A stretch of DNA of 64,000 nucleotides from a virus (taxonomy: Duplodnaviria > Caudoviricetes). A program made the position numbers and the translations under genes. Below the pieces are notes generated by a model. It was given only the letters and a program-made list of their open reading frames with translations, made no database searches and had not been told where the DNA came from. This document shows positions 12,437-48,709 of the stretch, in pieces; within the stretch, counting starts at the first letter, position 1, and the number at the start of each line of letters is the position of its first letter. The DNA is taken from IMG/VR virus record IMGVR_UViG_3300025867_000005. One strand, 5' to 3'.

Positions 12437-13318
12437 ATGGATACAATGGATACAACCTATATCTTTTACCACAAGGCCGACCACGACGGCTGTTTAAGCG
12501 CTTTCCTTGTAAAGGATTGGCTTGATAAACAAAACAGGAAATACTGCCTGATGCCTTGCGACTACGGCTGTGAACCGTATGACAGACTTGAAGAAATCAA
12601 AGGAAATCAGGTTTTCCTCCTTGACTTTTGTTTTGAAAAAGAAGGTGTCATGCAAAGAATTAAAGACGATTCTAAGTCCTTCATATGGATAGACCACCAC
12701 CAAAAAGCAATCCAAATGTTTCAGGACTTGAATATACAGGGATTACAGACAAAAGAAGAAAGCGCTTGCATGTTGACTTTCCGATATCTGTATCCCGATA
12801 CAAGGATGCCTGAAGCCGTTGAAAGAATAGGCTTGTTCGATTGTTGGAAACACGAAGACAGGAAGGAAATCATCGGGTTTGAATACTATCTGCAAAGCAG
12901 AGAATTGCCTCCTGACGGCATGGAATGGCAATTTATCCTTACCCTTAATTCTGAAGATTGTGACGAATACTCTAATTTCGGTTGGGTATCTTATCGCAAG
13001 GACCAAATTCTGAATAAAAAAATCCTTGAAGACTTTAGCTTCGAAACAGTTTTACACGGATATAAAATCCTCGCCGTCAATACCCAAACCAAGGGAAGCC
13101 TTGGCTTCGGAACCCGATTGAAAGAATATGACTTCTGTATCTCTTTTGTCTTTACAGGGAAGTTGTGGAAATACTCAGTCTACAGCAGTTCTAACGATTG
13201 CGCCGAATTCAGCCATAGGTTTTACGGCGGCGGCGGACATAAGGGAGCCGCAGGTTTTCAAACATCTGTACTTGTATTGAACCCGTTAACAATGAAAGAA
13301 GGTAACGATGGGAAATAA
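12437..13318 (+). CDS. DHH/DHHA1 family phosphoesterase
   Basis: YHKADHDG, LLDF, WIDHH, GGGGHKGAAGF. Confidence 0.88.
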   Translation: MDTMDTTYIFYHKADHDGCLSAFLVKDWLDKQNRKYCLMPCDYGCEPYDRLEEIKGNQVFLLDFCFEKEGVMQRIKDDSKSFIWIDHHQKAIQMFQDLNIQGLQTKEESACMLTFRYLYPDTRMPEAVERIGLFDCWKHEDRKEIIGFEYYLQSRELPPDGMEWQFILTLNSEDCDEYSNFGWVSYRKDQILNKKILEDFSFETVLHGYKILAVNTQTKGSLGFGTRLKEYDFCISFVFTGKLWKYSVYSSSNDCAEFSHRFYGGGGHKGAAGFQTSVLVLNPLTMKEGNDGK

Positions 13319-14111
13319 AATCTTCCTTCCCGATGGCTCACCCCTGATCCTGACAACAGGAAGCGCAAAAGATGTAGGGGATGGCAATCATACATTCGGT
13401 GAATTGTACGAACACCGTATACTCCTGTATATGGCTTGGCTTAAATCCCTCCCCAAAGATATGGCTTGGAAAAGCCTTAGACATCATTCCTCCAACGGCA
13501 ATGAAGAACCGATGTTTAAAGATTCCTTTATCTCAGGATTGAATATCCCAGGCCTCCAAGGAATAGATCAACAAATCAGTTACCATATCCCCCTTAGATA
13601 TTTCGACATCTGCCCTGGTAAAGAATTGAAACAGGCACCGGTTTGGGATCAGCATTCCAGCTTCGATGTCTTAGACCGACTACTCGAATATGTAGCAAAT
13701 CCAAAAACAAATTTTGATGCAGATTTCATTCCCGACGGCAACCCCAGGACTTGGATCGGTTTTGACCTCGACGGAACACTAGCAAGATATGACAAAGAAC
13801 AGGCAGTCAATCCCTTGACAGGCAGATACGACGGGCTTTGGATCGGCCAACCGATACCCGAAACCGTAAAACTTGCAAGGTATTGGATCAATAAGGGCGT
13901 GGAAATCCGAATCCTTACCGCTAGAGTATCGGCACTCCCTTTCTTGGAAAAACCGATACAGGAACAACAGGTCGTCTCTAAAATACAGGATTGGTGCCTA
14001 CTGCACTTGGGTAAAATAATCCCCATTACTTGTAAGAAAGACAAAAACATGTTCTGTCTCTATGACGATAGAACCATTCAGCTTATCAAGAATACAGGGA
14101 TACGGAAATAG
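13308..14111 (+). CDS. fusion of a conserved phage domain (WDGH-like) and a HAD-family phosphatase
   Basis: DGNHTFGELYEHR..WKS.RH..QISYH..WDQH; HAD motifs FDLDGTLA, LTAR, YDDR. Confidence 0.72.
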   Translation: MGNKIFLPDGSPLILTTGSAKDVGDGNHTFGELYEHRILLYMAWLKSLPKDMAWKSLRHHSSNGNEEPMFKDSFISGLNIPGLQGIDQQISYHIPLRYFDICPGKELKQAPVWDQHSSFDVLDRLLEYVANPKTNFDADFIPDGNPRTWIGFDLDGTLARYDKEQAVNPLTGRYDGLWIGQPIPETVKLARYWINKGVEIRILTARVSALPFLEKPIQEQQVVSKIQDWCLLHLGKIIPITCKKDKNMFCLYDDRTIQLIKNTGIRK

Positions 14112-21144: not shown

Positions 21145-21255
21145 GTTTTAGAATAGAAATGCTATTGACAGATTTCAACATTTTTGGTAAATTACACGCA
21201 TCTAAAGAACAAAAGGCTTGTAAGCCTTAAAGAACAAATAAAAGGAAAAACAGAT

Positions 21256-22479
21256 ATGGGTAAGACTCTCGGAATCAAGATGAGCAAGGCGGAACGTGAA
21301 CAGGCTATTTCAAAGTTCATGGTTAAACTTCTAAAGGAAAAGGAAAAGGCGGTTGTCTTTAAGACCCCCCATGAGGTAGTGAAGTCAGACATTACTGTCA
21401 AAGCATTGCTTGACAAGACGGCGACAAGCATGTGCGGACTGCCGGAAATCAATCTGAACCCGATTTTCCAGCGGGGATTCGTTTGGGGTCAGGACAAAGA
21501 AGACGCTTTGTTGAACACGATCCTTGAAGGCGGGCAGATCCCTAGCCTTACATTCGGTAAAGTGCGGGACAAGAACCCCAGCAGTTTTAATCGAATCTGT
21601 TGTGTCGATGGAGGTAATCGGATTCAGACTCTTTTGCGTTTCATCAATAACAAACGCGCGATTGCCGGTCTGTTCTGTCGAGACGAAGACGACGGAAGTG
21701 TTTCTGTTGATTCTACCAAGACCGTGAATCTGTATATCGGAAAGAAGTTTAAGGATCTTCCCGTTGACGTTCAAAACAAGATTCTGAACTATAAGTTTTC
21801 TTTTATCATTGAAGAGGTTGAGAAGGAAAATGATTTGACCAATATTTTCTTGCGGTTGAATTGCGGCGGTGTGGATATGGATTTCGGGCAGATTCTTATT
21901 GCCAAGTATCGGGAAACGGAATTCGGAAAGGCAATCTTGAATTTTATCGAAACAGAAACAGGGCGTGTTCTTCTTGGTCGCAAACGTGTCGGCAAAGTCA
22001 GCATTCCGAGTCTTTTCCTCCGGTGTTCTGGAATCGTCGCGACGGCAAGTGACTTTATGCGGTTTGTCGGGCGTGGCGGTGCCGATCAGTTTCTTGGAGA
22101 AAGTTCTGCTACTTCTTCTAAGGAAGCCGACAACAGCATGCTTCATTTCAAGAAGGCGGTGGAAGTGTTCAACAAGTATTTCTCAGATTTCGAGTTTTAT
22201 CAGCACGTCTTTGAAAAGAATGGCGCTAAGAAACTTGTTACCTGTACTTTCTCAAAACAAGAGAAGGTTAAGACGGCCATTATTTCCGTTCTTTGCGGAA
22301 TCGATGATCTTGATTTTGTTATCAAGAATCACATGGCCATCGGAGAAAATCTTGTTCAAAAGCTTCTTCCGTCTACGGTGGCAGATTCAATTCTGTTGAA
22401 CCTCCTTACCGTTCAAACGACCATGCGCGGTCGCCGTGAACAGGCAATGATGCAAATCCGTGAATGCTTTGGAATTTAA
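21256..22479 (+). CDS. DUF262 (ParB-like/GmrS N-terminal) domain protein
   Basis: PIFQRGFVW, IPSL, VDGGNRIQT, IFLRLN.GG. Confidence 0.8.
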   Translation: MGKTLGIKMSKAEREQAISKFMVKLLKEKEKAVVFKTPHEVVKSDITVKALLDKTATSMCGLPEINLNPIFQRGFVWGQDKEDALLNTILEGGQIPSLTFGKVRDKNPSSFNRICCVDGGNRIQTLLRFINNKRAIAGLFCRDEDDGSVSVDSTKTVNLYIGKKFKDLPVDVQNKILNYKFSFIIEEVEKENDLTNIFLRLNCGGVDMDFGQILIAKYRETEFGKAILNFIETETGRVLLGRKRVGKVSIPSLFLRCSGIVATASDFMRFVGRGGADQFLGESSATSSKEADNSMLHFKKAVEVFNKYFSDFEFYQHVFEKNGAKKLVTCTFSKQEKVKTAIISVLCGIDDLDFVIKNHMAIGENLVQKLLPSTVADSILLNLLTVQTTMRGRREQAMMQIRECFGI

Positions 22480-22543: not shown

Positions 22544-22792
22544 ATGAAAAGAATAAGCTTCAAAGGAATTCCTGTAAAGTGTTTTGAAACCCCGAAGCCA
22601 ATGAATGAAACCGTTAATCGGAGTCTCTGGATTTTGGAACAGTTCAAGGCAAAACACGGGAGACTTCCCAGACCCGAAGACAAAGCGTTTACAAAGCTTA
22701 CAGAAGTCCAGCAGGTATTTGCCAATGGCTTACGCAAGACCGTAACTGAAGGGCTCTATAAGCGTTTCTTGGAGATTTCTAAACATGGCTAA
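22544..22792 (+). CDS. hypothetical protein
   Basis: AAGGT RBS. Confidence 0.5.
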   Translation: MKRISFKGIPVKCFETPKPMNETVNRSLWILEQFKAKHGRLPRPEDKAFTKLTEVQQVFANGLRKTVTEGLYKRFLEISKHG

Positions 22793-23459
22793 GAAAGACT
22801 TTAATTATTGTCCGAAGAAAGCTGCATTTAGAAAAGAATGTATCTCCAAACCCATCCTTGAAATCTTCAGTGGACCTTTGCCAGAAGACAAAATCATTGT
22901 GGATACAGCGGGGGAATACTCAAAGAACGTCAAGGCGACAGCATGTTATCAGCTTCTTAAAGCAGGGGCGATCACTTCGACTACCCAATTCATGGGCGTT
23001 GACAACGAATCGAAATCCGGAAGTGATGGCGTTGTCAAGACAAATACTTTACGGTATGGACAGGGTTGCCGCTGGCATATTCCTTGTGTCTGTGATGAGA
23101 TTCAAAATTTCTGTTTGAGTAACAGAGACAGAATCGGGTTTATCAGTCTTGACCTTCAGGCATTGGCCCCGAATTGTTTCTTTGTGTTCGAAAGAACATT
23201 ACAAGCGATGCAGGGAGCCAGTCATAAATTCGGAATTTGTTTCAACTCCATTTTCAGCTTGCCTTGGAATATGCAAGAGAACCTTGTCAAAAACGGGCTT
23301 GTGGAAGAGGCGATGGAAACGGAATTTCAACGCTATCAAGAAGCTAATCCTTTTTTCGTCGATCTTCTTCAAAGCTACATTCCGATGTCTTGGTTCTGGT
23401 ATGAAGGATGTGGAAAATCTCAAACTATTTTGGGAAGTTTTGTTTTTGTAAAGGAGTAA
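22785..23459 (+). CDS. hypothetical protein (possible degenerate SAM-dependent fold)
   Basis: MGVDNE and FISLDL strands only. Confidence 0.4.
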   Translation: MAKKDFNYCPKKAAFRKECISKPILEIFSGPLPEDKIIVDTAGEYSKNVKATACYQLLKAGAITSTTQFMGVDNESKSGSDGVVKTNTLRYGQGCRWHIPCVCDEIQNFCLSNRDRIGFISLDLQALAPNCFFVFERTLQAMQGASHKFGICFNSIFSLPWNMQENLVKNGLVEEAMETEFQRYQEANPFFVDLLQSYIPMSWFWYEGCGKSQTILGSFVFVKE

Positions 23460-24208: not shown

Positions 24209-24655
24209 ATGAATGTTGATCCGAAGAATCGTTACATCATGCAGTACATTAAGGTTAAGGACGAGACCGGCCGAATGGCCCCTATCGGCGTCCTTACGTC
24301 AGGACTCGATAAGGACGGCAAGATCATCTATGCCTATTCCCTAACCAACACGAAGCCTACCAAGGCGCAGAAGGCCGCAGGTGTTAAGCCTGATAAGTTC
24401 GACATGGAGTTTGCAGTTAATCTCGCAATGAAGCGTCTTGATGATGGCGGGATGGATATTTCCAAGCTTCCTTCCCTTGTTTCGGGAATGATGAAGCCCA
24501 AGAATCTGCAAGTCAAGATTAACCAAGTCAAGACGCGCAAGGACGGGAACCTTCCTGAGAATTTCATCGGGTATCCCGGAACCAACCGTGGCTACATCAA
24601 GATTCGCGGTTTTAAGGAGCGTTCTGAAGCCTATTTCAAGGATGCCACCAAGTAA
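24209..24655 (+). CDS. hypothetical protein
   Basis: AAGGT RBS, 148 aa. Confidence 0.55.
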   Translation: MNVDPKNRYIMQYIKVKDETGRMAPIGVLTSGLDKDGKIIYAYSLTNTKPTKAQKAAGVKPDKFDMEFAVNLAMKRLDDGGMDISKLPSLVSGMMKPKNLQVKINQVKTRKDGNLPENFIGYPGTNRGYIKIRGFKERSEAYFKDATK

Positions 24656-25052: not shown

Positions 25053-25340
25053 TTCCTTAAAATCAAATCCGATGCAATGAAAAGGTAGTCGTTCAGATTC
25101 AAAGATTTCTATTGACTGTTCTCTGAAGTTCGGGCATGAAAGCGGGTCAATCATTATTCTGCTATAAAGACATCCTAGACAGGAGTGGAAGACTAATTTT
25201 TGATTATTTGCATCATCCGCTTCAGAAATGGAAAGAACACAACTGTTATGTTTACAATTGCCAAGTTTTGTCACAAATTGTTTCATTTTGTTCGATAATC
25301 CTCCGTAATGTCAAAGAATAGATTGCAAGGAGGAATTCTT

Positions 25341-25667
25341 ATGGGTCGCAAAAGAAAGTTCAATTCGATTCTCGTTCAGGATTCCAAAACAGATAACCTT
25401 CTGTTGATTTCTTTCGAAAACGGAAAAATTGCAAACGAGGGCTTAAATCTAGATATCGATAAGGGTTTTCTCTCAGACAGACTGGTAAACGGAAGGTTGC
25501 CACCGAACAAGATTTTGTTGACAGATGTGATTAAAGACGGAGAAAATTCAAGCTTCGCCATAAAGGCTTGTGTCGATTTGATTCTTGAAGGGAAATCCGT
25601 AAATTTTTGGGATATTGTAGAAAATCCCGATTATGTTTCCTACTTCTTACAAAAAGTTAAGATTTAG
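25341..25667 (+). CDS. hypothetical protein
   Basis: AGGAGG RBS. Confidence 0.55.
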   Translation: MGRKRKFNSILVQDSKTDNLLLISFENGKIANEGLNLDIDKGFLSDRLVNGRLPPNKILLTDVIKDGENSSFAIKACVDLILEGKSVNFWDIVENPDYVSYFLQKVKI

Positions 25668-25738
25668 TTTCCAAAATGTATTGACAACCTGGAACTAAAA
25701 TGTTATCTTTCTTTTATCAAATGGGGAAGGAAGACTTT

Positions 25739-25996
25739 ATGTTCAAAGCGATTGTCAGAATCACCGAAGGAACAGGGGCGGGTTACGGCATGCCTGCACA
25801 TCTCTATGTCAGTGGAGAAGGCATTGCTATGTCCAAGTCTCCGAAGAAAGCACTTACAGAAGCCAACAGGCTTGCAGAAGTAAGCCGTTCAGAAGATTGT
25901 GTCAAGCAAGGATTACCTAAAGGTGTAGGGCTGATTCCTGTCTACGGAGAAACGATCCTTTTCAAGGATGAAAAGATTGTGATGGTGAAGGCATGA
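25739..25996 (+). CDS. hypothetical protein
   Basis: promoter at 25681; ATGA overlap downstream. Confidence 0.5.
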   Translation: MFKAIVRITEGTGAGYGMPAHLYVSGEGIAMSKSPKKALTEANRLAEVSRSEDCVKQGLPKGVGLIPVYGETILFKDEKIVMVKA

Positions 25997-26358
25997 AAAA
26001 AGAAAAATTCCATCCATTCTTCAGTTACAATAAAAATTGCCGCAAGACGGCATGGGATACACCGGAATATCTGACAGAAGAAGATTGGAGATTCCTCGCG
26101 GGTTTGATTCCTTTCCTTGAATCAGATGATATCGGTGGGGCTAGAAATTATTTGTTTCCTTTAGGGGAAAAGTGGAATCTTGCTGATGATTTCTTTAATC
26201 GGACAATCGGTTGGCCAGAAGGATATTCATATTGCCCGAATATTGAAATCTGGTGCAAAGACATTGAAAAAACCTATTTCTATCAGTTAGGATTCCTAGC
26301 AATTAAGAAATACTGTTGTAAGATGAAAGAAGCTCTTAAAAAGCATCTGGATACTTGA
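25993..26358 (+). CDS. hypothetical protein
   Basis: translationally coupled ORF. Confidence 0.5.
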   Translation: MKKEKFHPFFSYNKNCRKTAWDTPEYLTEEDWRFLAGLIPFLESDDIGGARNYLFPLGEKWNLADDFFNRTIGWPEGYSYCPNIEIWCKDIEKTYFYQLGFLAIKKYCCKMKEALKKHLDT

Positions 26359-26415
26359 CAACCGAGATTAGTCTATGATATATTGACGGCATTCCAACAG
26401 GAAAGGACTTACAAC

Positions 26416-26988
26416 ATGAAAATTGACAGATTTCCGACAGCAGAAGAAGGTTTTAAATTGACTCCGTGCGTTATCGCCGGTGTTGATTGTTTTCTCATTG
26501 GACCCTTGGACATCAAAACAAAATTCAATGAGAGTAACAAGATTTTCCGTTCCAGCATTTGGACGGCTGACGGCTATCCCGTAAGTCTGGGTTTCCGCAA
26601 GTTTACGAATTACGGCGAAGCCCCTGCCTTCGAACCGTTTGATGTCAACAAAGATGACATGACATTCGTCACGAAGAAAGACGGAACATGTTGTGATGGC
26701 AACACCAGAATTGAAACAGAAGATGGTATAAAAACCATTCAAGAAATCTGCGAAGGTCGGTATTTGGGTCGGGTTTTAGGATATGATCATTCCAATAACC
26801 AGATTAAGTTTACGAAGGTTGTTGCACATTCCGTTAAGTCGAACAAAAACGACTGGTTCCTTTTAACCTTAGAGGATGGGACAGAAGTAAAACTAACTGG
26901 CTCACACTTGGTTTGGCTTCCTGAGTTATCTTGTTATCGTCGGGTTGATCAGCTTAAAGGCGATGAAGAAATTCTGATGTCAAAATAG
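26416..26988 (+). CDS. T4 Rnl1-like RNA ligase N-extein fused to split intein N-half (IntN 26689-26985)
   Basis: SLGFRKFTNYGE and motif I KKDGT, then intein block A CCDGNTRIETEDG and block B KLTGSH, then stop. Confidence 0.88.
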   Translation: MKIDRFPTAEEGFKLTPCVIAGVDCFLIGPLDIKTKFNESNKIFRSSIWTADGYPVSLGFRKFTNYGEAPAFEPFDVNKDDMTFVTKKDGTCCDGNTRIETEDGIKTIQEICEGRYLGRVLGYDHSNNQIKFTKVVAHSVKSNKNDWFLLTLEDGTEVKLTGSHLVWLPELSCYRRVDQLKGDEEILMSK

Positions 26989-27038
26989 ACTTCATCTATT
27001 TTTGTTGATATTTCCCTTACATAAAGGAGGATATCAAC

Positions 27039-27941
27039 ATGTTAGAAAAAACTGTAATGAATGCGCTTGCTACTCATAATATCGCCAAAGAGGATTTGTT
27101 CAAGATGTATTGTGAGCAAGAAATGAGCTTAACTAAAATAAAGGAAGTCACTGGACTTCAATTCCATCAAACTCTGGGAATTCTAAGGTTCTTTGGAATC
27201 CGCACCAGAGGAATAAGTGAATCACAAAAAACGAAAACTTACCGTAAAGAATTCGAAGAAACCATTGAAAAAAGATTCGGTCAAGGAATCAAAAACCCGT
27301 CACAAGCAGAATGTGTAAAAGAAAAGAAACGCCAAACTTTTCTTAAAAATTATGGGGTTGATAACATCTGGAAAAGTCCAAGCTTTAAGGAGTTCCTTGA
27401 CGGAAGAATGTTGGAACTTTATGGACAGAAAAGAGTTTCTGAAAATTACGCAGAGATGGGAGAAGAAGAACAAAGAAAGGCCTCTGAACGAAGAAGTCTT
27501 TCGGCTCGGACTGCTTGGGAAAATAAAAGTGAGGAATCTAAATCTCAACAAATAAAAAGAATCCACAAAGGAGGGTCTTCGGAGATTGAAAAGGCTTTCG
27601 GGAAACATCTTGATTTTCTAGGGATTGAATATGAAACCTCTTTCTATCTCGGAGTGAATCAGTTTGATTATCGACTATCTGGGACTAACATTCTGATCGA
27701 AATAAATGGAGACTTCTGGCATGGGAATCCATCCTTATATGTCAGCGGAGACGTTATCCGCTTCCCAGTAAAGAGCGTGTTGGTTGATAAGTTGTGGGAG
27801 AAAGATGAAAAGAAGCGGCAAAAAGCAATAGGAAAAGGGTTTGTTGTCATCACTTTTTGGGAAAGGTTCCTAAAAAAAGCAACAGAAGAAGAAATTAGGA
27901 AGAAGGTATATGATGAAATTAAAGTCCATTCAAAGGATTGA
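27039..27941 (+). CDS. free-standing putative homing endonuclease (Vsr/DUF559-like PD-(D/E)XK)
   Basis: EKKRQTFLKNYGVDN DNA-binding repeat; FDY...LIEINGDFWHG...KD..K...GF.VI.FWE. Confidence 0.8.
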   Translation: MLEKTVMNALATHNIAKEDLFKMYCEQEMSLTKIKEVTGLQFHQTLGILRFFGIRTRGISESQKTKTYRKEFEETIEKRFGQGIKNPSQAECVKEKKRQTFLKNYGVDNIWKSPSFKEFLDGRMLELYGQKRVSENYAEMGEEEQRKASERRSLSARTAWENKSEESKSQQIKRIHKGGSSEIEKAFGKHLDFLGIEYETSFYLGVNQFDYRLSGTNILIEINGDFWHGNPSLYVSGDVIRFPVKSVLVDKLWEKDEKKRQKAIGKGFVVITFWERFLKKATEEEIRKKVYDEIKVHSKD

Positions 27942-28836
27942 AAACAATTCTAAGCGTTATGATATCCAAACTGAAACTGGGAATTTCTTTGCTAATGGAA
28001 TTTTAGTACACAACTGTTTGATTGTCAGCAAGTTCAACGGTCAGCTTATCGTCAGGACTCGCGGCACCATTGATGCCCGAGGGATGCCTAACGGCCAAGA
28101 AATTGACGAATTGATTGCCAAGTATCCAAAGGCTTTTGATAATGACTGGTTGGACAAAGGATTCAGCATTTGTTATGAGTGGACTACCCCTAGTAACATC
28201 ATTGTTCTGGCCGAATCCACAGAACCGGAACTTTGGCTTACGGGGATTATTGATCACAAAGATTATTCCTATGCCCCGCAGAAAATCCTTGATGCTGCCG
28301 TTACCTTCCTTGGTGGCGTCAAGCGTCCGAAGACGTATAAATTCAACAGCTTTGAAGAAATGGTTGCGGCGGTTGAAGCTTTCCGTGGCATTGAAGGAGT
28401 AGTCGTTTATGCCTGTAACGGTCAAATTTTGAAGAAGGTTAAGAGTGTCGCTTATTTGGCGTTGCACCGTATGAAAAGCCATCTTGGGAGCACTGAGAAC
28501 GTTGTTGATTATTTTCTTGCCAACGGTTGCAAAACGTCCGAAGACCTGATTGCGAAAGTGACGGCTGACAGCGATTTCGAAATCGCGAAAGTCATCAGTC
28601 TTTCTGCTCCGATGGTTGCGGAAGCCTATCGCCGCACGGTGGAACAGCTAGATACGGCTTATTCGTTTGTTGAACAAAACGTCAAGGTTCTTGTAAACCG
28701 TAAAGACATGGCGACGGCGATCCTTGGTCACAATAAGGAATTGTCGGGCTTTATGTTTCAAATGCTTGACGGGAAAATCAAACAGCCTTGGAATGATGTT
28801 GTTTTGAAGAAAATCATGATGGCCTATGTTAAGTAG
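27910..28836 (+). CDS. split intein C-half (IntC 27910-28014) fused to Rnl1-like RNA ligase C-extein
   Basis: YDIQTETGNFFANGILVHN|C (blocks F/G, Cys+1); ligase motifs RTRG, YEW..P.NIIV, EGVVV, KKVKS..YL.LH. Confidence 0.9.
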   Translation: MMKLKSIQRIENNSKRYDIQTETGNFFANGILVHNCLIVSKFNGQLIVRTRGTIDARGMPNGQEIDELIAKYPKAFDNDWLDKGFSICYEWTTPSNIIVLAESTEPELWLTGIIDHKDYSYAPQKILDAAVTFLGGVKRPKTYKFNSFEEMVAAVEAFRGIEGVVVYACNGQILKKVKSVAYLALHRMKSHLGSTENVVDYFLANGCKTSEDLIAKVTADSDFEIAKVISLSAPMVAEAYRRTVEQLDTAYSFVEQNVKVLVNRKDMATAILGHNKELSGFMFQMLDGKIKQPWNDVVLKKIMMAYVK

Positions 28837-28876
28837 AATTTTTTGATATTCAATTACAAGGTAGGAGAACTAAACG

Positions 28877-29380
28877 ATGAATGATGGGTTTTGGATTAAT
28901 TACGCCAACGGTAAAACTGTACGGATTCACGAGCATGAGACGGATATCAGGAATCCCAGTGTCTTTAAGAAGTTAGGCTTCAATGTCAAAGAAATGGAAG
29001 CCTTCAAACCGTTTAAGCTTGGCGTGGATCGTGAAAAGTTCATGTTGTGGTTGATGCACAAATATCCACTTATGCGGGTACGCGGGCATGGTATTTCCAC
29101 GACTTTTGAATTTGATTCCAGGTCACGTCAATCCCCTTTGGATGCTGTTTTTGAGTTTGCTGAAAACAACTTGGGTCAATTTTCCATGTTGACTATCAAC
29201 AACTTTGCAACCAAAGAATCTGTTGACATTTCTTTCGGTGCGTTTAAAGATTTGATGGACTCCGATGGGGCAGAAGGAGTTTTGCGTTACGGTTCGACGA
29301 TTAGAATAAATTCGAACGTTCTAAAAGAGCTTCGTAAAATCTCCCGTGTGCTAAAAACCACTGACATGTTGAAAAAGTAA
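28877..29380 (+). CDS. hypothetical protein
   Basis: AGGAG RBS, 167 aa. Confidence 0.6.
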   Translation: MNDGFWINYANGKTVRIHEHETDIRNPSVFKKLGFNVKEMEAFKPFKLGVDREKFMLWLMHKYPLMRVRGHGISTTFEFDSRSRQSPLDAVFEFAENNLGQFSMLTINNFATKESVDISFGAFKDLMDSDGAEGVLRYGSTIRINSNVLKELRKISRVLKTTDMLKK

Positions 29381-29520
29381 AGGATGGTGAAAAATGAATT
29401 GGATTTTAAAAATGCTTAAACGGTACAATGCTTGGCTGACGACCGACCCGATTATTTGGAAGGCAATGAAAACCGCCAAAAAGAACGGGAATAAATGCAA
29501 CTTAGTCGCAAGGTGGAAAA

Positions 29521-30519
29521 ATGGAATCTGATTATAGCTATGTTTATGATCCGGAACATAAGAAGAACCCAGGAAGCGGATTTTCTAAAACAGAAAAGGG
29601 CTGGTCTAAAACAGACTATCAAGAAGACATACAAAAGCCAGAAGTGCAGGATAAGTTTGTTTTTGAACACAATGCCGTCTTTAAGTTCGGTAGCAAACTA
29701 AATGTAAATTTTCACGGAACGACGGAAGCATCAAAATCATTTCCTTCAAGATTTCGTGATGCTTTAAAAAGATTTATCGGTAAGAAAAACCAATACAAAG
29801 AATTTCAGCAGAAGTATTCGGAATTACTTGATTCAGTCGTTGAAAAAACCAAAGGTTCTGAAAACCCTTTGGTTATTTACGGTTGGTCTGTCAGAAGCGG
29901 GCAGGATAATGGTCAATTTGATGTTGAAATGCTTGGTGTTGACCCCGTACATACAGCAATGATAGGCGAAGAAATCGCCAAAGAATTCGGAAGAGTAGAA
30001 ATTGCAACTGATACCCCGACACAAGAAACGAAATCCATCATCATTGATAAAAATGGGAATGCTTCTTCTTTTCTTGGTTTACCGGCTGTACACCAGGGTA
30101 AAACAAGGTTTACGTTTTCCACGAATGTAACTGTAGACATTGATAATACGGAACCGAAAGATTTTATAGACGGACTTAAGAAGGCCTTTCGGAACAAACT
30201 CGTTTCTATTAGAAATGACGTGATGACAAGAAACAATGAAAAGAATTTCATCAAGAAGGTAAAGGCGGCGTTTGAAGAGTCTGGGGCAACGTTTACTCCG
30301 CAACAAATATCCATATCTCCCGTTTTCGGAGGTTATCGCGATCAAAAAACACATGAAGTAGGAACGGAAATTTCATATGACATCCATTTTAAACAAATAG
30401 ATCCAGAACAAGCCGTTCTTATTTCGAAAGCATTGAATAAACAATTTCACCAACAATCCACTCTTCTAACAGGGTACGGAAATAACAAGAGAGCGGCATT
30501 TTATATTTCAGGAATCTGA
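29521..30519 (+). CDS. tandem SAM-lyase-like domain protein with N-terminal YxxDPxHK motif
   Basis: C-terminal GGYRD..TEISY..QAVLISKAL..QQSTLL; paralogous to 60817-61677. Confidence 0.55.
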   Translation: MESDYSYVYDPEHKKNPGSGFSKTEKGWSKTDYQEDIQKPEVQDKFVFEHNAVFKFGSKLNVNFHGTTEASKSFPSRFRDALKRFIGKKNQYKEFQQKYSELLDSVVEKTKGSENPLVIYGWSVRSGQDNGQFDVEMLGVDPVHTAMIGEEIAKEFGRVEIATDTPTQETKSIIIDKNGNASSFLGLPAVHQGKTRFTFSTNVTVDIDNTEPKDFIDGLKKAFRNKLVSIRNDVMTRNNEKNFIKKVKAAFEESGATFTPQQISISPVFGGYRDQKTHEVGTEISYDIHFKQIDPEQAVLISKALNKQFHQQSTLLTGYGNNKRAAFYISGI

Positions 30520-30626
30520 CAAATCTTTTTATGGAAGCCATTGACAAGCCCGAATGGTTTTGATATTGTATCTATATCGAAGCCACTTTAGGATTTATTG
30601 AAGAGAATTGAAGAAAGGGTTTAGAC

Positions 30627-31193
30627 ATGAAAACTCAAAAGTTGAAACAGTTGGTTCAGGAATGTGGTAAGGTTACAGTCCGATTGACGGATGAACTTTG
30701 GGATGAATCTTGTGGACAGAAAGGAATGCTTGCGGATGTCATCCAATATATTGATGAGGATGATGGTTGCAGATTCGTTTTCGATTACCAACGCTATTTG
30801 GCGAATGATCTTCCGCTGCAAACTCGAAACTACTACATCGATACCGGTCTCGGAACGGCATTCGAAGCGGGTCTGATGTCGATGAATCGGGTTCAGGAAG
30901 ATATCTATGCGGAGAAAGAGGGAGAAATCTCTTGTGAAATCGTGGATGAACTTCTTAACAAATATCTTTCAAGCGGTAGCCAGCTTTCTTATGTGGAATG
31001 GATGGAAGCCCGCCTGAAGGCTACAACTTCGGAAGACTTAGCCGTTGCGGAAATCAAAGCGTTGGACGGCATGAAGATTGATGAAGTTCACCAAAAGGCA
31101 GATGAAGTCCTTTTGAAGGTTCTGAAATCCGCTGGTTTTTCTAAGCTTGTCGCCGCATATCGCGAAGCAAGTGTTGATTTCTATTACATCTAA
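30627..31193 (+). CDS. hypothetical protein
   Basis: promoter at 30541. Confidence 0.55.
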   Translation: MKTQKLKQLVQECGKVTVRLTDELWDESCGQKGMLADVIQYIDEDDGCRFVFDYQRYLANDLPLQTRNYYIDTGLGTAFEAGLMSMNRVQEDIYAEKEGEISCEIVDELLNKYLSSGSQLSYVEWMEARLKATTSEDLAVAEIKALDGMKIDEVHQKADEVLLKVLKSAGFSKLVAAYREASVDFYYI

Positions 31194-43589: not shown

Positions 43590-43679
43590 GGAGAGTTGGC
43601 AGAATTGGTAAATGCGCGGGCCTGGAAAGCCTGCGGGAATCAAAAACCCACGAGGGTTCGAACCCCTCACTCTCCTCCA
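43590..43679 (+). tRNA. trnS: tRNA-Ser(GGA)
   Basis: cloverleaf, loop CT-GGA-AA, long V arm, encoded CCA. Confidence 0.9.
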
Positions 43680-43700
43680 GTTTTTGAAATTTGAGATTAA

Positions 43701-43794
43701 GGAGGGTTGGGGGAATTGGTTGAACCCGGATGTCTCGAAAACATCTGAATCGGCTAACACCCGGTTCTGTCAGTTCGAATCTGACACCCTCTTG
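43701..43794 (+). tRNA. trnS: tRNA-Ser(CGA), no encoded CCA
   Basis: GATGT-CTCGAAA-ACATC, long V arm, GTTCGAATC. Confidence 0.88.
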
Positions 43795-43797
43795 CTG

Positions 43798-43864
43798 GAT
43801 AAGTTGAAGTACCTTTACGTGGTTTCTGGTATAGGGTCGCTTGCGATTCTCGAAATCTTCAACA
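43798..43864 (+). repeat. 67-bp dispersed repeat, copy 1
   Basis: 62/67 identical to 47574-47640. Confidence 0.9.
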
Positions 43865-43884
43865 GTGTTCTTTAAAATTAGAAT

Positions 43885-43972
43885 CGGAGTTTAGCTCAGT
43901 TGGTAGAGCACCGCACTTTTAATGCGGGGGTAGCGTAAGCAATCACGGGTTCGAACCCCGTAACTCCGGCCA
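43885..43972 (+). tRNA. trnK: tRNA-Lys(TTT) with long variable arm
   Basis: CCGCA-CTTTTAA-TGCGG; 17-nt V region; CCA. Confidence 0.87.
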
Positions 43973-43988
43973 TTAAAGGGAAACAAAA

Positions 43989-44020
43989 GTTGCGTCCCCT
44001 GCGGGCGCATGAATTGAAAC
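43989..44020 (+). CRISPR. solitary type I-C-like CRISPR repeat unit 1
   Basis: GTTGCGTCCCCTGCGGGCGCATGAATTGAAAC (32 nt). Confidence 0.75.
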
Positions 44021-44130
44021 CGACGCAGACTAAGAATCTGTGGCTGCCGAAAGGCAGCGGTTAATTTTGACAATTGAATAAGTTCTTGAATTCACACAGG
44101 TTCCCTTAAATGGATTCTTGTGTGAAATTT

Positions 44131-44205
44131 GCGGGTGTATCTCAAAGGCTAGAGACTCAGTTTACCAAACTGATTATGAGAGTTCAATTCTCTTCTCCCG
44201 CTCCA
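44131..44205 (+). tRNA. trnG: tRNA-Gly(ACC)
   Basis: GCGGG acceptor, TCAGT-TTACCAA-ACTGA, U73-CCA. Confidence 0.85.
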
Positions 44206-44380
44206 GATGGGTCCAATCGCCCCATGATTGGTAGCCAGTTCACATGACTGGTTTGCAGCGATATCAGATGTATGGATTTCAGTAGGAGCCTCAGTGTGAC
44301 CGCAATGAAATCCAGGCATTGAAGTATTGGAATCTGTTTTAGAAAAAATCATGGCAGTAACCTCTGTGTAAAAGGTAAAT

Positions 44381-44479
44381 AGTAGAATAGGCCAAATTGG
44401 TAGGGCAGTTGACTGTTACTCAACCCAAGACAATCTTAACCGATTGTGTGTGCAGGTTCGAATCCTGCTTCTACTGCCA
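44381..44479 (+). tRNA. trnN: tRNA-Asn(GTT) with 27-nt variable arm
   Basis: GTTGA-CTGTTAC-TCAAC; G73-CCA. Confidence 0.8.
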
Positions 44480-44488
44480 TTTTAAGAA

Positions 44489-44565
44489 CGGCGCGTGGGT
44501 CAACTTGGTAGACCGCTTGATTCGGGTTCAAGAATTTGCTGGTTCAAATCCAGTCGCGCCGACCA
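44489..44565 (+). tRNA. trnP: tRNA-Pro(CGG)
   Basis: CTTGA-TTCGGGT-TCAAG; C1-G72; ACCA. Confidence 0.9.
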
Positions 44566-44612
44566 TGTTTGAACGGGTTTGAAGAAAATGAAAAAAATCT
44601 TCAGTATCCCTA

Positions 44613-44862
44613 TTGACAACATGCCGTGGATTTAGTAAGATGTGCGGCGTTGAAAGGACAAGTAGGGAAACCAAAAATCCTGACAACAAATGTTCTTTGA
44701 GAGATGAAATGATGGTTCTGAATAGGTCAGAAGGAAGCGATGCTATGACGGTGGCAACCCAATGGCTAAAACGCGGCCAGATACGGTTCGATTCCGTGAT
44801 TCAGAAAAATCAGAAAAATTTTTCGAAGACCACTTGACAGACGGCGGCGGTTTTGCTAAAGT
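44613..44862 (+). promoter_or_regulatory. tandem sigma70 promoters with GC-rich discriminators and a boxA-like site
   Basis: TTGACA-17-TAAGAT-GTGCGGCG (44613); TGTTCTTTGAGA (44691); TTGACA-17-TAAAGT-CTGCGG (44834). Confidence 0.7.
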
Positions 44863-45351
44863 CTGCGGTGTTGAAGAGAAAAAGGCAAAAAGCGGTTTGA
44901 CGCCGCGCCCTGCGGAAAAGTTCAGAAATGAACTGGGGTAAAAATTGACAACTGAATACGATTTGAAAAAGAGTCTCTGAAGACCGGCCTGAATGAAAAG
45001 CTCAGGAAATGGGAACAAATCCCGCCCGGAAAAAAGAGACTTATCGCCATGCCGCCTTAAAACGGTATGGACTGGTTGATGAATCCAAGATTCCGTTCCC
45101 TTAAAGGAATGTTGAGTCAAGTGAAGTCAATCAAGAATTTCTGAAAACAGGCGGTGTCTGCCTGACCCTATTTAATAGTAGGGTGAAAGGACTCGGGCGT
45201 TAGTTCTGTGTTCAATCCGTAGCGCTTCCTTGAGAAGTGTATAACGTGTTGAAAGGTGTTAATCTTAGAAATCAGATTCACAGGGTCTGATGGAGATGTC
45301 GGTTGCCAGACTTGTGTGGCAATTAAAAAGCACCGCTGAACGCCAAATCTT

Positions 45352-45440
45352 GAGGGTATGGAGTAATTGGTTAACTCGCCAGGTTTTCATCCTGGAAACG
45401 CACTGCGCTTGTGCGGGTTCGAATCCCGCTACCCTTGCCA
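45352..45440 (+). tRNA. trnE: tRNA-Glu(TTC) with long variable arm
   Basis: CCAGG-TTTTCAT-CCTGG; 17-nt V region; GCCA. Confidence 0.85.
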
Positions 45441-45615
45441 TCTTTCGATGCGAATATCGGACAGACAATTTTGAAAATCTTAAGAAGGTAGATTCATGGT
45501 TCGACGGAATTGTGAATCCTGACCTAACAGGGATAGATTCTACGTGGTGTATGGTGCACACTGGCCCCCTCAAACGGGCCGGGGGACAACGTTCAAGTCG
45601 TTGACGGAAGAACAA

Positions 45616-45646
45616 GTTTGTGTCTGCAAAGACGCATAAGTGAAAT
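45616..45646 (+). CRISPR. divergent solitary repeat-like unit 5
   Basis: GTTTGTGTCTGCAAAGACGCATAAGTGAAAT (31 nt). Confidence 0.45.
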
Positions 45647-45677
45647 CCCCTACAACTTTACCCCTGAACAGGGGAAT

Positions 45678-45753
45678 GCATCGGTAGTTCAATTGGTAGA
45701 ACGATGGACTTCCACTCCGTAGGTTGCCGGTTCAAGCCCGGTCCGATGCTCCA
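45678..45753 (+). tRNA. trnG: tRNA-Gly(TCC)
   Basis: ATGGA-CTTCCAC-TCCGT; TCCA. Confidence 0.9.
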
Positions 45754-45754
45754 T

Positions 45755-45783
45755 GTTGCACAAGTTTGTGTATGAATTGAAAT
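45755..45783 (+). CRISPR. solitary type I-C-like repeat unit 2
   Basis: GTTGCACAAGTTTGTGTATGAATTGAAAT (29 nt), 1 nt after the tRNA CCA. Confidence 0.6.
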
Positions 45784-45827
45784 AAATAGCGGTATATCAG
45801 TTAGTAGATAGTTTCCATGATTTTTAT

Positions 45828-45903
45828 AGGAGTGTCGTATAGATGGTTTTTACGGATGTCTGATAAACATCTTAAGAGGGTTCGACTCCCTCCACTCCTA
45901 CCA
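45828..45903 (+). tRNA. trnI: tRNA-Ile(GAT)
   Basis: GATGT-CTGATAA-ACATC; ACCA. Confidence 0.88.
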
Positions 45904-46014
45904 TTTGTCGGAATTAGAACTGTCGTGAAATTCACATTGATCAGTGAAAAGTAATTCTGGAGCCGCATAGACAGTTATATACCCCCTCGGTCAAAGGGTA
46001 CGACAATTAATTTT

Positions 46015-46090
46015 GGGGCTGTCGTCTAAGAGGAAGGACATAGGGCTGAAAATCCTACGGTGATGGTTTCGAGTACCTCTGGCCCCACCA
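46015..46090 (+). tRNA. trnF: tRNA-Phe(GAA)
   Basis: TAGGG-CTGAAAA-TCCTA; ACCA. Confidence 0.83.
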
Positions 46091-46188
46091 ATTTAAAGCT
46101 GAATAGCAACGTATCCAAGCCGTTGTGCCCGTCCCTTCTTTTGGAAGGTAATGATATGCGGTTGAAATCCGAAGCTTGGCCGATTTAC

Positions 46189-46308
46189 GGGGATGTGGCG
46201 CAATGGCAAACACGGGTTGTATCCTAACAGCTTAGGTCGTGCGGAACAGCCTGTTGTCTAAATCCAAATTACGACAACTTGTATGTTCGAATCCTGCCTT
46301 CCCCATCA
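46189..46308 (+). ncRNA. tRNA-like RNA (Arg-CCT-like) with two extra helices in the variable region
   Basis: GGGGATG/CTTCCCC acceptor, GTTCGAATC T-loop, irregular anticodon loop, ends ATCA. Confidence 0.5.
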
Positions 46309-46315
46309 TTTTTTA

Positions 46316-46479
46316 CGGGACGAAGTAAAACGGAAAGGTCTCGGATCAATTGATCCCGAACACATGTCAGACTGGTAAGCGCAACCGAATTGACTTCGGG
46401 TTTATTTTCCGATAAAAGACTATAACACCAAGGAATGGTGCCTTGGAAATATTTGGTTCGACTCCAAAAGTCCCGACCA
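46316..46479 (+). ncRNA. tRNA-like RNA with a large insertion in place of the D arm (copy A)
   Basis: CGGGAC/GTCCCG-ACCA, T arm TTTGG-TTCGACT-CCAAA. Confidence 0.6.
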
Positions 46480-46591
46480 ACATCTGTTTCTAATTAATTC
46501 AGAGAAAACATTGAACAGCCGTGGGCTCTGTTTAATCTCAATCGGTGAGTTTACCTAATGCGGTAAAAGTCCGTGGCCTCCTCCGTTTTAT

Positions 46592-46680
46592 TGATAGGTG
46601 CGGAGAATGGTATTCCAGTTGGCTGTTAACCAACCGTCCCGCAAGGGCAATCGCTGGTTCGAATCCAGTCCTATCAGCCA
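46592..46680 (+). tRNA. trnN: tRNA-Asn(GTT) no. 2 with long variable arm
   Basis: GTTGG-CTGTTAA-CCAAC; V arm CCC-GCAA-GGG; GCCA. Confidence 0.85.
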
Positions 46681-46688
46681 TTTTTTAT

Positions 46689-46821
46689 GCAGTAGGAGTA
46701 AAACGTAAAGTCGGTTCTGGAAACCTCTGGGTTCGTTCGATGTCGTGCCCAGTCAAGGAACTGATATAACACCTCCAAACGAAGGAGGAGATATCTGGTT
46801 AGACTCCAGTCTACTGTACCA
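46689..46821 (+). ncRNA. tRNA-like RNA with a large insertion in place of the D arm (copy B)
   Basis: GCAGTAG/CTACTGT-ACCA, T arm CTGG-TTAGACT-CCAG. Confidence 0.6.
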
Positions 46822-46847
46822 TTGCTGCGACTTGTAGCATAAGAATT

Positions 46848-47196
46848 TCTGGCGTAGCTTAAGCCTTACCCAAACAAAACAGTCCCTATGTCAGGGATAT
46901 GATGTTTGTAAAACAAGGGATAGACCTTGGGTTTAAATTGAAAGGGTGTGGCCACATCTTTTTAAGGAAAACCCAAATAAGGGAACGTGTTTGAAATCCC
47001 CTTGGGGAAAAAACAACTGCGATGATGCAGTAAGATGATAAGGAAGAAGAGATAGACGGTTTGCATTTGACATACTGGTGTAATCTGGTTAGCACGGCCC
47101 TGATAGAGGGGGAGGTCCGGGTTCAAATCCCTAGTGTCGCTAGATGCGGGCTGGAACAAGATTGAAATCCTCTGAAGGTACTTATCCGCCAGACCA
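46848..47196 (+). ncRNA. candidate ~350-nt CCA-ended RNA with an embedded degenerate tRNA domain (47069-47142)
   Basis: TCTGGCG/CGCCAGA closing stem plus CCA; internal D arm and GGTTCAAATCC. Confidence 0.4.
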
Positions 47197-47198
47197 AT

Positions 47199-47493
47199 TT
47201 TACCTGCTTCTCAGAAGTTATAGGGTTCTGTTTTGAAACATAAGAATATCAATTTGTTTAGCGGATATCCCTTATGAAAAGGAAGTCTTATGATTCTGAG
47301 GATATTCATTCCCATTTCGTTTATGGAGAGTGCTGGTGAAAGACGCATAGGAAAGGACAATTGGAAGGGATTCACGACTTGCGATATGCCTATGCGCCTT
47401 AAAGTGAATATGCGTTGTCATTCAGTCGGATGTCAATGTGAACTATTTACGGCTCATATCCTTTGGCGGATGCCTTAATCCGTGGAAGGTAAA
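47199..47493 (+). ncRNA. candidate ~295-nt structured RNA
   Basis: TTTACCT/AGGTAAA, CTCAGAA/TTCTGAG, CATAAGA/TCTTATG, ATATTCATT/AGTGAATAT, CGCATAGG/CCTATGCG. Confidence 0.5.
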
Positions 47494-47494
47494 T

Positions 47495-47568
47495 GGGGAT
47501 GTATCTCAATTGGACAGAGTGTGTGGCTTCTAACCACAAGGTTGCGGGTTCGACTCCCGCTTTCCCCA
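47495..47568 (+). tRNA. trnR: tRNA-Arg(TCT), no encoded CCA
   Basis: TGTGG-CTTCTAA-CCACA; GGTTCGACTCC. Confidence 0.87.
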
Positions 47569-47573
47569 CGGGT

Positions 47574-47640
47574 GATAAGTTGAAGTACCTTTACGTGGTT
47601 TCACCTATAGAGTCACTTGCGATTCTCGAAATCTTCAACA
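47574..47640 (+). repeat. 67-bp dispersed repeat, copy 2
   Basis: 62/67 identical to 43798-43864. Confidence 0.9.
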
Positions 47641-48286
47641 AAATGATATCTTGGATAATTTTTAAGAATTTCATAGCTTTCCCTTCTTTAAAGTGTTGGA
47701 AAGTTGAAACATCAATAATACAAAGTTCTATATTTCGTTCGTGACAAGCTTGGCATTTCCTGTTGTCATTGTTTTGAATTTTGGAAAGCTTATCTTCACC
47801 GTAGATAGGTTCGTAATGAAAGATACCATTTAGTTCGAAAGCAAGTTTCAAAGAAGGAATGTAGATATCTAGTTCTGAATTGATAGCGTCCTTCCTATTG
47901 AAGTGGAATTCAAGATTTGGGTAAAGGATCGGCAACTTCGTTTCCAACCACCTTTCAAGCTTAGATATTTTTGTTCCTTTTGTTTTATGCATGTTATTAT
48001 AGGTTGCTGAACAAGATTGACTGCAAAAATGGTGTTTGGATTTCTTGATGCGCGAAATTTGTATCTTAAATTTTTTACTACATTGTTCGCAGTTGATAAA
48101 AATTGGAGGATGAACAGATTGACCGAAACAGATAAGAGAACAATATTCAGAAGTTTCACCTTTTTTTGTATTTTGAATCCTGTGTTTTTCTTTGTAGAAA
48201 GTTTTACCGCAATGTTTACATTGTAACGGTAGTAGTTGACGTGATTTAGCTGCTTGGAATTCTTCTTCGGTAAAAAGTGGTATCAT
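47591..48286 (-). CDS. Zn-finger plus Vsr/DUF559-like putative homing endonuclease
   Basis: CxxC..YCS..C repeats; ELDIYIP..LAFELNGIFHY; AGGAGG RBS. Confidence 0.8.
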   Translation of the reverse strand: MIPLFTEEEFQAAKSRQLLPLQCKHCGKTFYKEKHRIQNTKKGETSEYCSLICFGQSVHPPIFINCEQCSKKFKIQISRIKKSKHHFCSQSCSATYNNMHKTKGTKISKLERWLETKLPILYPNLEFHFNRKDAINSELDIYIPSLKLAFELNGIFHYEPIYGEDKLSKIQNNDNRKCQACHERNIELCIIDVSTFQHFKEGKAMKFLKIIQDIILLKISRIASDSIGETT

Positions 48287-48329
48287 AATCTATTCCTCCT
48301 ACATATGGAATGAATATCGAAGAACAATT

Positions 48330-48352
48330 TTCGACTCTCGCCTTCCCCACCA
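48330..48352 (+). pseudogene. displaced duplicate 3' end of tRNA-Arg with CCA
   Basis: TTCGACTCTCGCCTTCCCCACCA; 19/21 match to 47549-47569. Confidence 0.8.
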
Positions 48353-48632
48353 ATAACCGAGAAGGGTCAGCAAACTTCAAAATAATGAAGGCTGGAAAAA
48401 ATAGACGGCATAGGACATGGTTCGATTCCCTTAGCCTTGGTAGGATGTCCGGATTGCTGGAACTTATGTGAAATCACCTTCTCGATGCTTTCAAACATCC
48501 CCTTTGAGTCAGAAAAATCAGCGGGATGTTTTCAAATAAGCCTTGTGACTTCTACAAATTTATCTGACAAGTTTCTGTTTGTCACAGGGAAGATCGGAAA
48601 CTTCCGACACGGGGATGAAAAGCCCCGAATAT

Positions 48633-48709
48633 GCTTGTGTAGCGCAACTGGATAACGCATCTGGCTCTTACCCAGAGGATTGCGGGATCGTTCCCCGCCA
48701 CAAGTACCA
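48633..48709 (+). tRNA. trnK: tRNA-Lys(CTT)
   Basis: TCTGG-CTCTTAC-CCAGA; ACCA. Confidence 0.87.

Follow-up and report, generated by a model that had tools for sequence, protein, structure and literature searches.

The fractured genes described by Dassa et al. 2009 are host genes divided between the two halves of a split intein. Their hosts were gp41, IMPDH, DnaE, NrdA, NrdJ, DNA ligase, terminase and one unknown protein; hairpins accompanied the endonuclease gene in 15 of 16 loci, and the overlap of this gene with the one for the C-terminal intein half ranged from 6 to 69 bp (PMC2677866). Here we describe a locus of this type in a virus genome of the class Caudoviricetes (IMG/VR record IMGVR_UViG_3300025867_000005). 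The stretch of DNA that we analyzed, called the window below, is 64,000 nucleotides long and corresponds to positions 148571-212570 of the 304,025-bp record, which CheckV rates as complete. We conclude, with a probability of roughly 0.88, that a gene for a ligase of the Rnl1 family (the family of T4 RNA ligase 1) is a genuine fractured gene in this genome, cut at KKDGT^CLIVS, four residues past the adenylylation lysine, by a 1326-bp mobile cassette, and that its two halves are rejoined by protein trans-splicing.

The locus consists of three open reading frames (ORFs), which lie where the preliminary description of this DNA had placed them (Table 1). ORF1 encodes the N-terminal part of the ligase (N-extein) followed by the N-terminal intein half (IntN), the second ORF encodes an endonuclease, and ORF3 encodes the C-terminal intein half (IntC) followed by the rest of the ligase (C-extein). 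ORF3 could start at either of two adjacent ATGs (27910 and 27913). A start with MKLKS is used in the database gene call P0001 (307 aa) and in the relatives P0008 and P0093, thus the length of IntC may be 34 aa and not 35 aa. The 3' end of the endonuclease ORF overlaps ORF3 by 32 nt (29 nt counted from 27913), and the ribosome-binding site of the IntC ORF, AGGAAGAAGG, is located within the endonuclease gene.

The strongest evidence comes from comparison with ligases that have no intein. Searching with the C-extein gave about 300 relatives, mostly 355-375 aa in length and uninterrupted. One of these intact homologues, P0003 (362 aa), reads FVTKKDGTCLIVSKF and so contains exactly the predicted spliced junction, KKDGT-CLIVSK. 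The N-extein and the first 91 residues of P0003 share 92% identity, and the C-extein is 80% identical to both P0003 and P0002. The preliminary description had proposed checking whether the joined exteins run contiguously along intact homologues. This was done with the two exteins aligned as separate rows, and on all five intact homologues used (P0003, P0002, P0004, P0009 and P0012) they followed each other with no gap and no overlap. This alignment identifies the first Cys of the CC... sequence as residue 1 of the intein and Cys+1 as one of the ligase's own residues. Additionally, two IMG/VR contigs (L001 and L002) carry an uninterrupted gene between homologues of the genes upstream and downstream of the ligase in the window, which identifies the 1326-bp segment from IntN through the endonuclease to IntC as an insertion. 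The G+C content of the cassette is 0.31-0.40, compared with 0.44-0.46 for the exteins.

Both intein halves are recognized by family models, at a level well outside what chance would give. The NCBIfam model for intein N-termini (intein_Nterm, TIGR01445) scores 31.7 bits against a cut-off of 24.5 and starts exactly at ORF1 residue 92, and the model for intein C-termini (intein_Cterm, TIGR01443) reaches 28.3 bits (cut-off 15.6) and ends at the HN|C junction. All the residues required for class-1 splicing are present: Cys1, the T-G-S-H of block B (IntN residues 70-73), the His-Asn pair and Cys+1. Five IntN sequences taken from three ligase lineages all have Cys1 and the block B Thr and His, and two further cysteines of IntN, Cys21 and Cys82, are specific to this clade and invariant in it. 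A profile built from the five IntN sequences has its best match in the NrdJ-1 intein (8ubs, 5.8e-6, nearly full length), followed by the DnaE split inteins, and IntC matches the same NrdJ-1 structure at 8e-4. The profile was needed to see this, as a phmmer search of ORF1 alone against the Protein Data Bank (PDB) gave nothing. The net charges of the two halves are complementary (-3 for IntN and +2 for IntC).

The assignment of the host protein to the Rnl1-type ligases, already made in the preliminary description from motif I, holds up by both profile and fold. ORF3 matches the Pfam family RNA_lig_T4_1 (PF09511) with 29.4 bits against a gathering score of 28.3, and the ligase matches PHROG 562 at 7e-29. 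A profile of 27 intact homologues finds T4 Rnl1 (2c5u) at 2.6e-16 and two further T4 Rnl1 structures (5tt6 and 9do4) at about 1e-16. Motif I of this family profile, KlDGs, aligns with TKEDGS of T4 Rnl1, and its Lys, Asp and Gly are invariant in the family alignment. The C-extein contains motif III (YEWTTPSN), motif IV (EGVVVY) and motif V (LKKVKS), as well as a helical C-terminal domain; the residues of these motifs align with E159, E227/G228 and K240/K242 of T4 Rnl1. An AlphaFold model of P0003 (predicted local distance difference test, pLDDT, 89.6) has the same three T4 Rnl1 structures as its top fold matches, with E-values of about 1e-15 over some 370 columns, and fungal Trl1 ligase domains come next. 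The enzyme probably functions in the repair of RNA or tRNA. ORF1 supplies the lysine nucleophile (K87) and ORF3 supplies motifs III-V, so an active ligase cannot be made from either chain by itself.

We infer protein trans-splicing at this locus from these features. In the mechanism that we propose, the unit would be transcribed from a promoter upstream of ORF1 and the ligase halves would be made as two separate polypeptides of 190 aa and 307/308 aa. IntN, which is acidic, and the basic IntC would then dock and fold into one HINT domain, and class-1 trans-splicing would proceed by an N-S acyl shift at Cys1, transesterification to Cys+1, cyclization of the Asn and an S-N shift. The expected product is a ligase of 364 aa with motif I restored. 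The hairpin that buries the ribosome-binding site of the endonuclease gene would hold the level of the endonuclease low. During co-infection the endonuclease would cut intein-less alleles of the ligase gene, and repair from the cassette-bearing genome would copy the cassette into them (homing).

The mobility of the cassette becomes apparent when comparing the window to an 11,848-bp contig from a freshwater run, which encodes P0122 (N-extein and IntN), P0125 and P0008 (IntC and C-extein). This contig aligns to IntN at 92% DNA identity; the 3' part of the endonuclease gene, IntC and 259 nt at the start of the C-extein align at about 89.5%. It skips 279 bp of the window (26985-27263), so that the ORF1 stop codon, both hairpins and the first 75 endonuclease codons are gone. 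The rest of the endonuclease gene has a 1-nt insertion, and P0125 is a 129-aa C-terminal remnant of the endonuclease (98% identical). The N-extein, next to IntN on its upstream side, has diverged too far for alignment at 85%. At the protein level IntN is 93% and IntC 100% identical between the two loci, compared with about 65-70% for the exteins, thus the same cassette sits in two diverged ligase alleles, and it has been transferred recently between them. The changes listed for IntN comprise 12 codons with synonymous and 6 with non-synonymous changes, over 64 synonymous and 233 non-synonymous sites, which indicates purifying selection on IntN while the freshwater endonuclease decays. Sister alleles without the intein exist in three lineages, represented by P0003 (the lineage of the window), P0275 (which falls into one 90% cluster with P0008) and L014-L016, and a wastewater contig joins the N-extein directly to the C-extein. 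A search for longer Rnl1 alleles with a contiguous, non-split intein found none, which is weak evidence only.

ORF1, P0093 and the IntN profile served as queries in searches for relatives of the locus, which found about 10 related fractured RNA ligase loci in metagenomes (Table 1). The identity of their IntN sequences to that of the window steps down from 93% through 51% and 46% to 38%; for a DnaE split intein in the same genome as the window it is 23%. Most of the Rnl1-type members have the intein inserted between the Gly and the Ser of KxDG-S, where the intact L015 allele (4991-5065) reads RKLDGSLLIVSR. The insertion in the window, Thr^Cys (26686-26691 / 28012-28017), is located one codon downstream of Gly^Ser, and the inteins at the two positions are homologous and both start with Cys-Cys. 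In L017 the IntN has an Asn in the position of the block B His (T-G-N-N), and canonical splicing chemistry is thus questionable in that member. A metagenome scan for P0093 returned intein-less sisters and L017 only, and not the P0093 locus itself. The cassette of the window belongs to a recurrent and seemingly undescribed clade.

Two of these relatives have neighbors of interest. In L022, and also in L023, an intact Rnl1-type ligase gene (6112-7173 in L022) lies about 0.6 kb downstream of the fractured ligase. In L024 (1842-2771), and also in L025, the fractured ligase adjoins a gene for a 310-aa protein with an AAA_33 kinase domain and a cyclic phosphodiesterase domain of the fungal tRNA ligase type (PF08302), the latter scoring above its cut-off. 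Judged by these domains, the L024 ligase and the 310-aa protein are a predicted Trl1-like heal-and-seal RNA repair set on separate genes. A search of the whole genome to which the window belongs found no homologue of this kinase-phosphodiesterase end-healing protein.

There are several points that weigh against our interpretation of the locus. The second intein residue is an unusual Cys. The ligase scores only 49-63 bits with the NCBIfam equivalog model for T4 RnlA (TIGR02308) against a cut-off of 242, and it is therefore a distant member of the Rnl1 family and no equivalog of T4 RnlA. The promoter is a consensus match only, of a sigma-70 type that may not be that of the host, and the count of such sites in the region is not above that of shuffled controls. 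The late promoter element of the T4/Aeh1 type, TATAAATA, is absent from 26989-27038; it was present in 10 of the hairpins of Dassa et al. 2009, so it is not universal there either (PMC2677866). Finally, none of the public runs listed with the locus is an RNA run, and those flagged as possible RNA are probably DNA and contain short parts of it only.

In another reading, the intein halves would no longer splice and would serve for high-affinity docking only, so that the ligase would be a non-covalent two-chain enzyme like NrdA of phage Aeh1. Phage enzymes that reassemble from split parts without splicing are known, the Aeh1 nrdA/mobE case being discussed in Dassa et al. 2009 (PMC2677866). The Cys-Cys start is unusual, and the Asn in place of the block B His of L017 means that some members of the clade may deviate from the canonical chemistry. 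Despite this, every class-1 splicing residue is present in the window, and Cys1, the block B Thr and His, the His-Asn pair and the +1 nucleophile are kept in all the Rnl1-type clade members examined. A retained HINT domain of 134 residues would occupy the motif I loop, four residues from the catalytic lysine, and IntN remains under purifying selection. Docking without splicing therefore strikes us as improbable.

It is harder still to argue that the cassette simply disrupted the ligase gene and left two decaying fragments. Selfish elements are abundant in the genome (a second fractured gene and no fewer than five other intein matches), and Rnl1 is dispensable for T4 in many hosts. Decay does not fit the exteins themselves: both extein ORFs are full length without a frameshift or stop, all their catalytic motifs are intact, and they are 80-92% identical to uninterrupted homologues. 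At the sister locus on the freshwater contig it is the endonuclease alone that decays, and the ligase and intein halves stay open and conserved. We give a dead gene very little credence. That the split is an artefact of assembly or sequencing (a contig that is chimeric, or errors that broke up a contiguous intein containing the endonuclease) is practically negligible even for a genome assembled from a metagenome, since identical proteins are recorded on 5 contigs, a 205-kb contig from a public run spans the whole stretch with 0 differences, the endonuclease is read in another frame and has a ribosome-binding site, hairpin, start and stop of its own, and the layout of three ORFs recurs in the independent loci L017, L020, L021 and L022.

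Returning to the cassette in its fractured, trans-splicing form, the endonuclease gene between the intein halves is what would make it mobile. The preliminary description had called this nuclease Vsr-like, and the structural comparisons bear this out. The protein matches the PHROG 3339 family ('homing endonuclease') at 9e-12 and has 5970 relatives in the protein library. It consists of an N-terminal helical domain (DUF7487-like) and a C-terminal catalytic domain of the Vsr-like/EDxHD type with D210, E221, F226-W227-H228 and D256 as catalytic residues. All of 42 relatives have D210, E221, W227 and H228, and at least 90% of them have D225 and D256. The Vsr residues are listed as D51, F62, F67-W68-H69 and D97 (Dassa et al. 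2009, PMC2677866), and the spacing of D210, E221, H228 and D256 (18, 7 and 28 residues) equals that of D51, F62, H69 and D97. By phmmer the endonuclease alone found nothing in the PDB; a profile was needed, and it matches I-Bth0305I (3r3p) at 4e-6 and Vsr (1cw0) at 9e-5. Both are also the top matches by fold, together with 1vsr, when a model of the endonuclease (pLDDT 92.4) is used, with a template modeling (TM) score of 0.73 to the target for 3r3p and Foldseek E-values of only 2e-3 to 8e-3. In the representative library there is also a 771-aa protein (P0130) whose residues 472-747 match the whole endonuclease at 36% identity. Its N-terminal region is long and unrelated, and it may be a fused or mis-called form of the endonuclease family.

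Expression of the endonuclease appears to be constrained by RNA structure. The 50-nt spacer that follows ORF1 contains two hairpins, and a 71-nt fold has an energy of -19.3 kcal/mol (z = -4.0), a stability that none of 200 shuffled sequences reached. The start codon of the L017 endonuclease, which is homologous to that of the window (28% identity, 4e-26), lies in an analogous hairpin of unrelated sequence (-20.7 kcal/mol, z = -6.9). The first of the two hairpins in the window could weakly attenuate or terminate transcription after ORF1 and before the endonuclease gene, and it fails a scan for G+C-rich terminators. Going by its position, the promoter probably drives the whole unit from ORF1 through the endonuclease gene to ORF3.

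Table 1. Features of the fractured ligase locus, in window coordinates, followed by related fractured ligase loci with positions in their own records where given (^ marks the insertion site)
Feature or locus	Position	Strand	Description
Sigma-70-like promoter	26355-26384	+	TTGACA-18-TATATT with TG extension, 11/12 matches, 31 nt upstream of ORF1
ORF1	26416-26988	+	190 aa, N-extein and IntN; stop codon 26986-26988
N-extein of Rnl1-type RNA ligase	26416-26688	+	91 aa, ends ...TKKDGT; motif I K87-K-D-G-T91
IntN	26689-26985	+	99 aa, starts CCDGNT; Cys1, block A T6/T10, block B T-G-S-H
A/U-rich hairpin and U run	26982-27002	+	Spans ORF1 stop codon
Hairpin	27003-27039	+	Pairs Shine-Dalgarno AAGGAGG (27024-27030) and the A of the endonuclease ATG
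Homing endonuclease gene	27039-27941	+	300 aa, free-standing, frame differs from ligase halves
ORF3	27910-28836	+	308 aa, or 307 aa from the second of two adjacent ATGs
IntC	27910-28014	+	35 aa (34 from ATG 27913), ends ...ILVHN
C-extein	28015-28833, stop to 28836	+	273 aa, starts CLIVSK with Cys+1
L020, L021			Rnl1-type; KLDG^S; full endonuclease, overlapping IntC ORF
L027			Rnl1-type; KLDG^S; endonuclease frameshifted, two ORFs
L024/L025			Rnl1-type; KVDG^S; no endonuclease
P0123/P0276 (N halves), P0093 (C half)			Rnl1-type; KLDG^/KMDG^ (N halves), ^S (P0093)
P0124/P0277			Rnl1-type, third lineage; KMDG^; N half only
L026			Host protein without assigned family; EKPDG^S; no endonuclease
L017	2639-5924		PHROG 968 RNA ligase; KRHG^T; endonuclease present
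L022/L023	3048-5480 (L022)		PF09414 and OB-fold RNA ligase; KTDEVR^CQN, upstream of motif I; Vsr-like endonuclease present

Taken together, these loci put several stages of the homing cycle of a split intein on view, with the endonuclease intact (the window, L017, L020, L021 and L022), frameshifted (L027), 5'-deleted (the freshwater contig) or absent (L024 and L026), and with empty alleles as well; the intein halves meanwhile remain under selection. One could go further and propose a split-intein lineage specialized on phage RNA ligases, which would have moved among at least three Rnl1-type lineages and the PF09414/OB-fold family, slid one codon to a new +1 nucleophile, and made trans-splicing a regulated step that is redox- or metal-gated via Cys2, Cys21, Cys82, Cys1 and Cys+1. 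We regard this proposal as unlikely as it stands. If the gating did hold, the RNA ligase would become active only when infection reached a particular stage or state.

The preliminary description had also called an RNA ligase an uncommon host for a split intein. This stands as far as the literature goes, as RNA ligases are not among the hosts of Dassa et al. 2009, and a full-text literature search gave no paper describing a split intein in RNA ligase, Rnl1 or RnlA. A survey of actinobacteriophages reported RNA ligase inteins in RtcB-type and tRNA-splicing ligases, which are different families. It has to be qualified by the roughly 10 related loci in metagenomes, which make the combination less rare than was supposed.

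As for the source of the DNA, the stretch is present in two activated-sludge runs, where the inference of habitat leaves out the small-share runs X3-X8. A blastn search of the locus against 50,697 phage records gave no match.

Elsewhere in the genome there is a second fractured gene, DnaE (genome 121641-125100), about 23.5 kb upstream of the window, which has been confirmed in outline only. It consists of a 587-aa ORF ending in a 94-aa IntN (GRG|CFVPWN...), a 517-aa ORF and a 36-aa IntC (MSKIKSLKK...AVHN|S), and the 517-aa endonuclease ORF is unrelated to the endonuclease of the ligase locus. Further intein matches occur at 12658-13581 and possibly at 72793/76558 of the genome, and a single ORF at 115296-117446 has two. 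A 431-aa ORF (window 21184-22479) located some 4 kb upstream of the ligase has a GmrSD_N restriction-endonuclease N-terminal domain (PF03235, 1.3e-13); a Pfam search of neighboring ORFs (25308-31193, 22785-23459 and 24209-24655) found no families.

The window also contains 29 tRNA genes on the + strand (43590-62367), about 15 kb downstream of the ligase. Several tRNAs of 85-99 nt are neither Ser nor Leu: Lys-UUU (43885-43972), Asn-GUU (44381-44479 and 46592-46680), Glu-UUC (45352-45440) and Cys-GCA (49743-49832). We considered whether these over-long tRNAs carry introns that would need the ligase, and rejected the idea. Rfam alignments of Lys-UUU, Glu-UUC and the Asn-GUU at 44381-44479 show that the additional 13-24 nt belong to the variable arm and not to the anticodon loop, so these are long-variable-arm tRNAs of unusual identity and do not contain introns.

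With this locus, RNA ligases, cut at the nucleotidyl-transferase motif I, join the short list of intein-fractured enzymes. A natural split pair related to the very fast NrdJ-1, with relatives that have Ser+1 or Thr+1, could be useful as a tool for protein engineering, and the dissimilar DnaE split pair in the same genome would complete a set for testing orthogonality and for protein ligation tools. For phage biology the cassette is otherwise an ordinary selfish element in a gene of non-essential type.

The comparison with known systems can be made for each component. T4 RNA ligase 1 (RnlA; 2c5u, 5tt6 and 9do4) resembles the ligase of the window in its fold, its C-terminal helical domain and its motifs I, III, IV and V. 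It differs in sequence, with an identity of about 19-20%, and the T4 enzyme is a single polypeptide without an intein. For the intein, the NrdJ-1 split intein (8ubs and 9omb) is the closest solved relative of both halves. It shares the canonical split site, the long IntN and an IntC of about 35-40 aa, and its identity to IntC of the window is about 60% in blocks F and G. The host of NrdJ-1, however, is a ribonucleotide reductase with another insertion site, and IntN of the window is only distantly similar; the intein of the window starts with Cys-Cys, uses Cys+1 and has the invariant Cys21 and Cys82. The catalytic domain of the endonuclease has the fold and active-site residues of I-Bth0305I (3r3p) and E. 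coli Vsr (1cw0), with identical spacing, although sequence identity to I-Bth0305I is about 20%. I-Bth0305I, the characterized member of the Vsr-like EDxHD homing endonucleases, is encoded within a group I intron of a phage recA gene (PMC2677866), unlike the endonuclease of the window, which is free-standing between intein halves.

The layout has precedents of two kinds. In Aeromonas phage Aeh1 (nrdA-a/mobE/nrdA-b) a free-standing homing endonuclease gene likewise divides the gene of an essential-type enzyme into two ORFs that are translated separately, and the ribosome-binding site of the endonuclease is covered by a regulatory hairpin (discussed in PMC2677866). The difference is that Aeh1 NrdA has no intein and reassembles non-covalently, whereas the endonuclease of the window is flanked by a complete split intein. 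Closer to our locus are the fractured genes of Dassa et al. 2009 (gp41-1, NrdJ-1, IMPDH-1, NrdA-2, DnaE, DNA ligase and terminase), which have the same order of N-extein-IntN, Vsr-like endonuclease and IntC-C-extein. The parallel had been drawn before from the gene order, and it extends to the overlap of the endonuclease gene with IntC (32 nt here), the hairpin at the 5' end over the endonuclease start, the phage origin and the insertion in a highly conserved catalytic motif. The locus of the window differs from them in its host, a T4 Rnl1-type RNA ligase, and in a hairpin without TATAAATA. It also lies in a complete 304-kb genome rather than in a short read assembly, which allows the syntenic empty alleles and the decayed sister copy to be identified.

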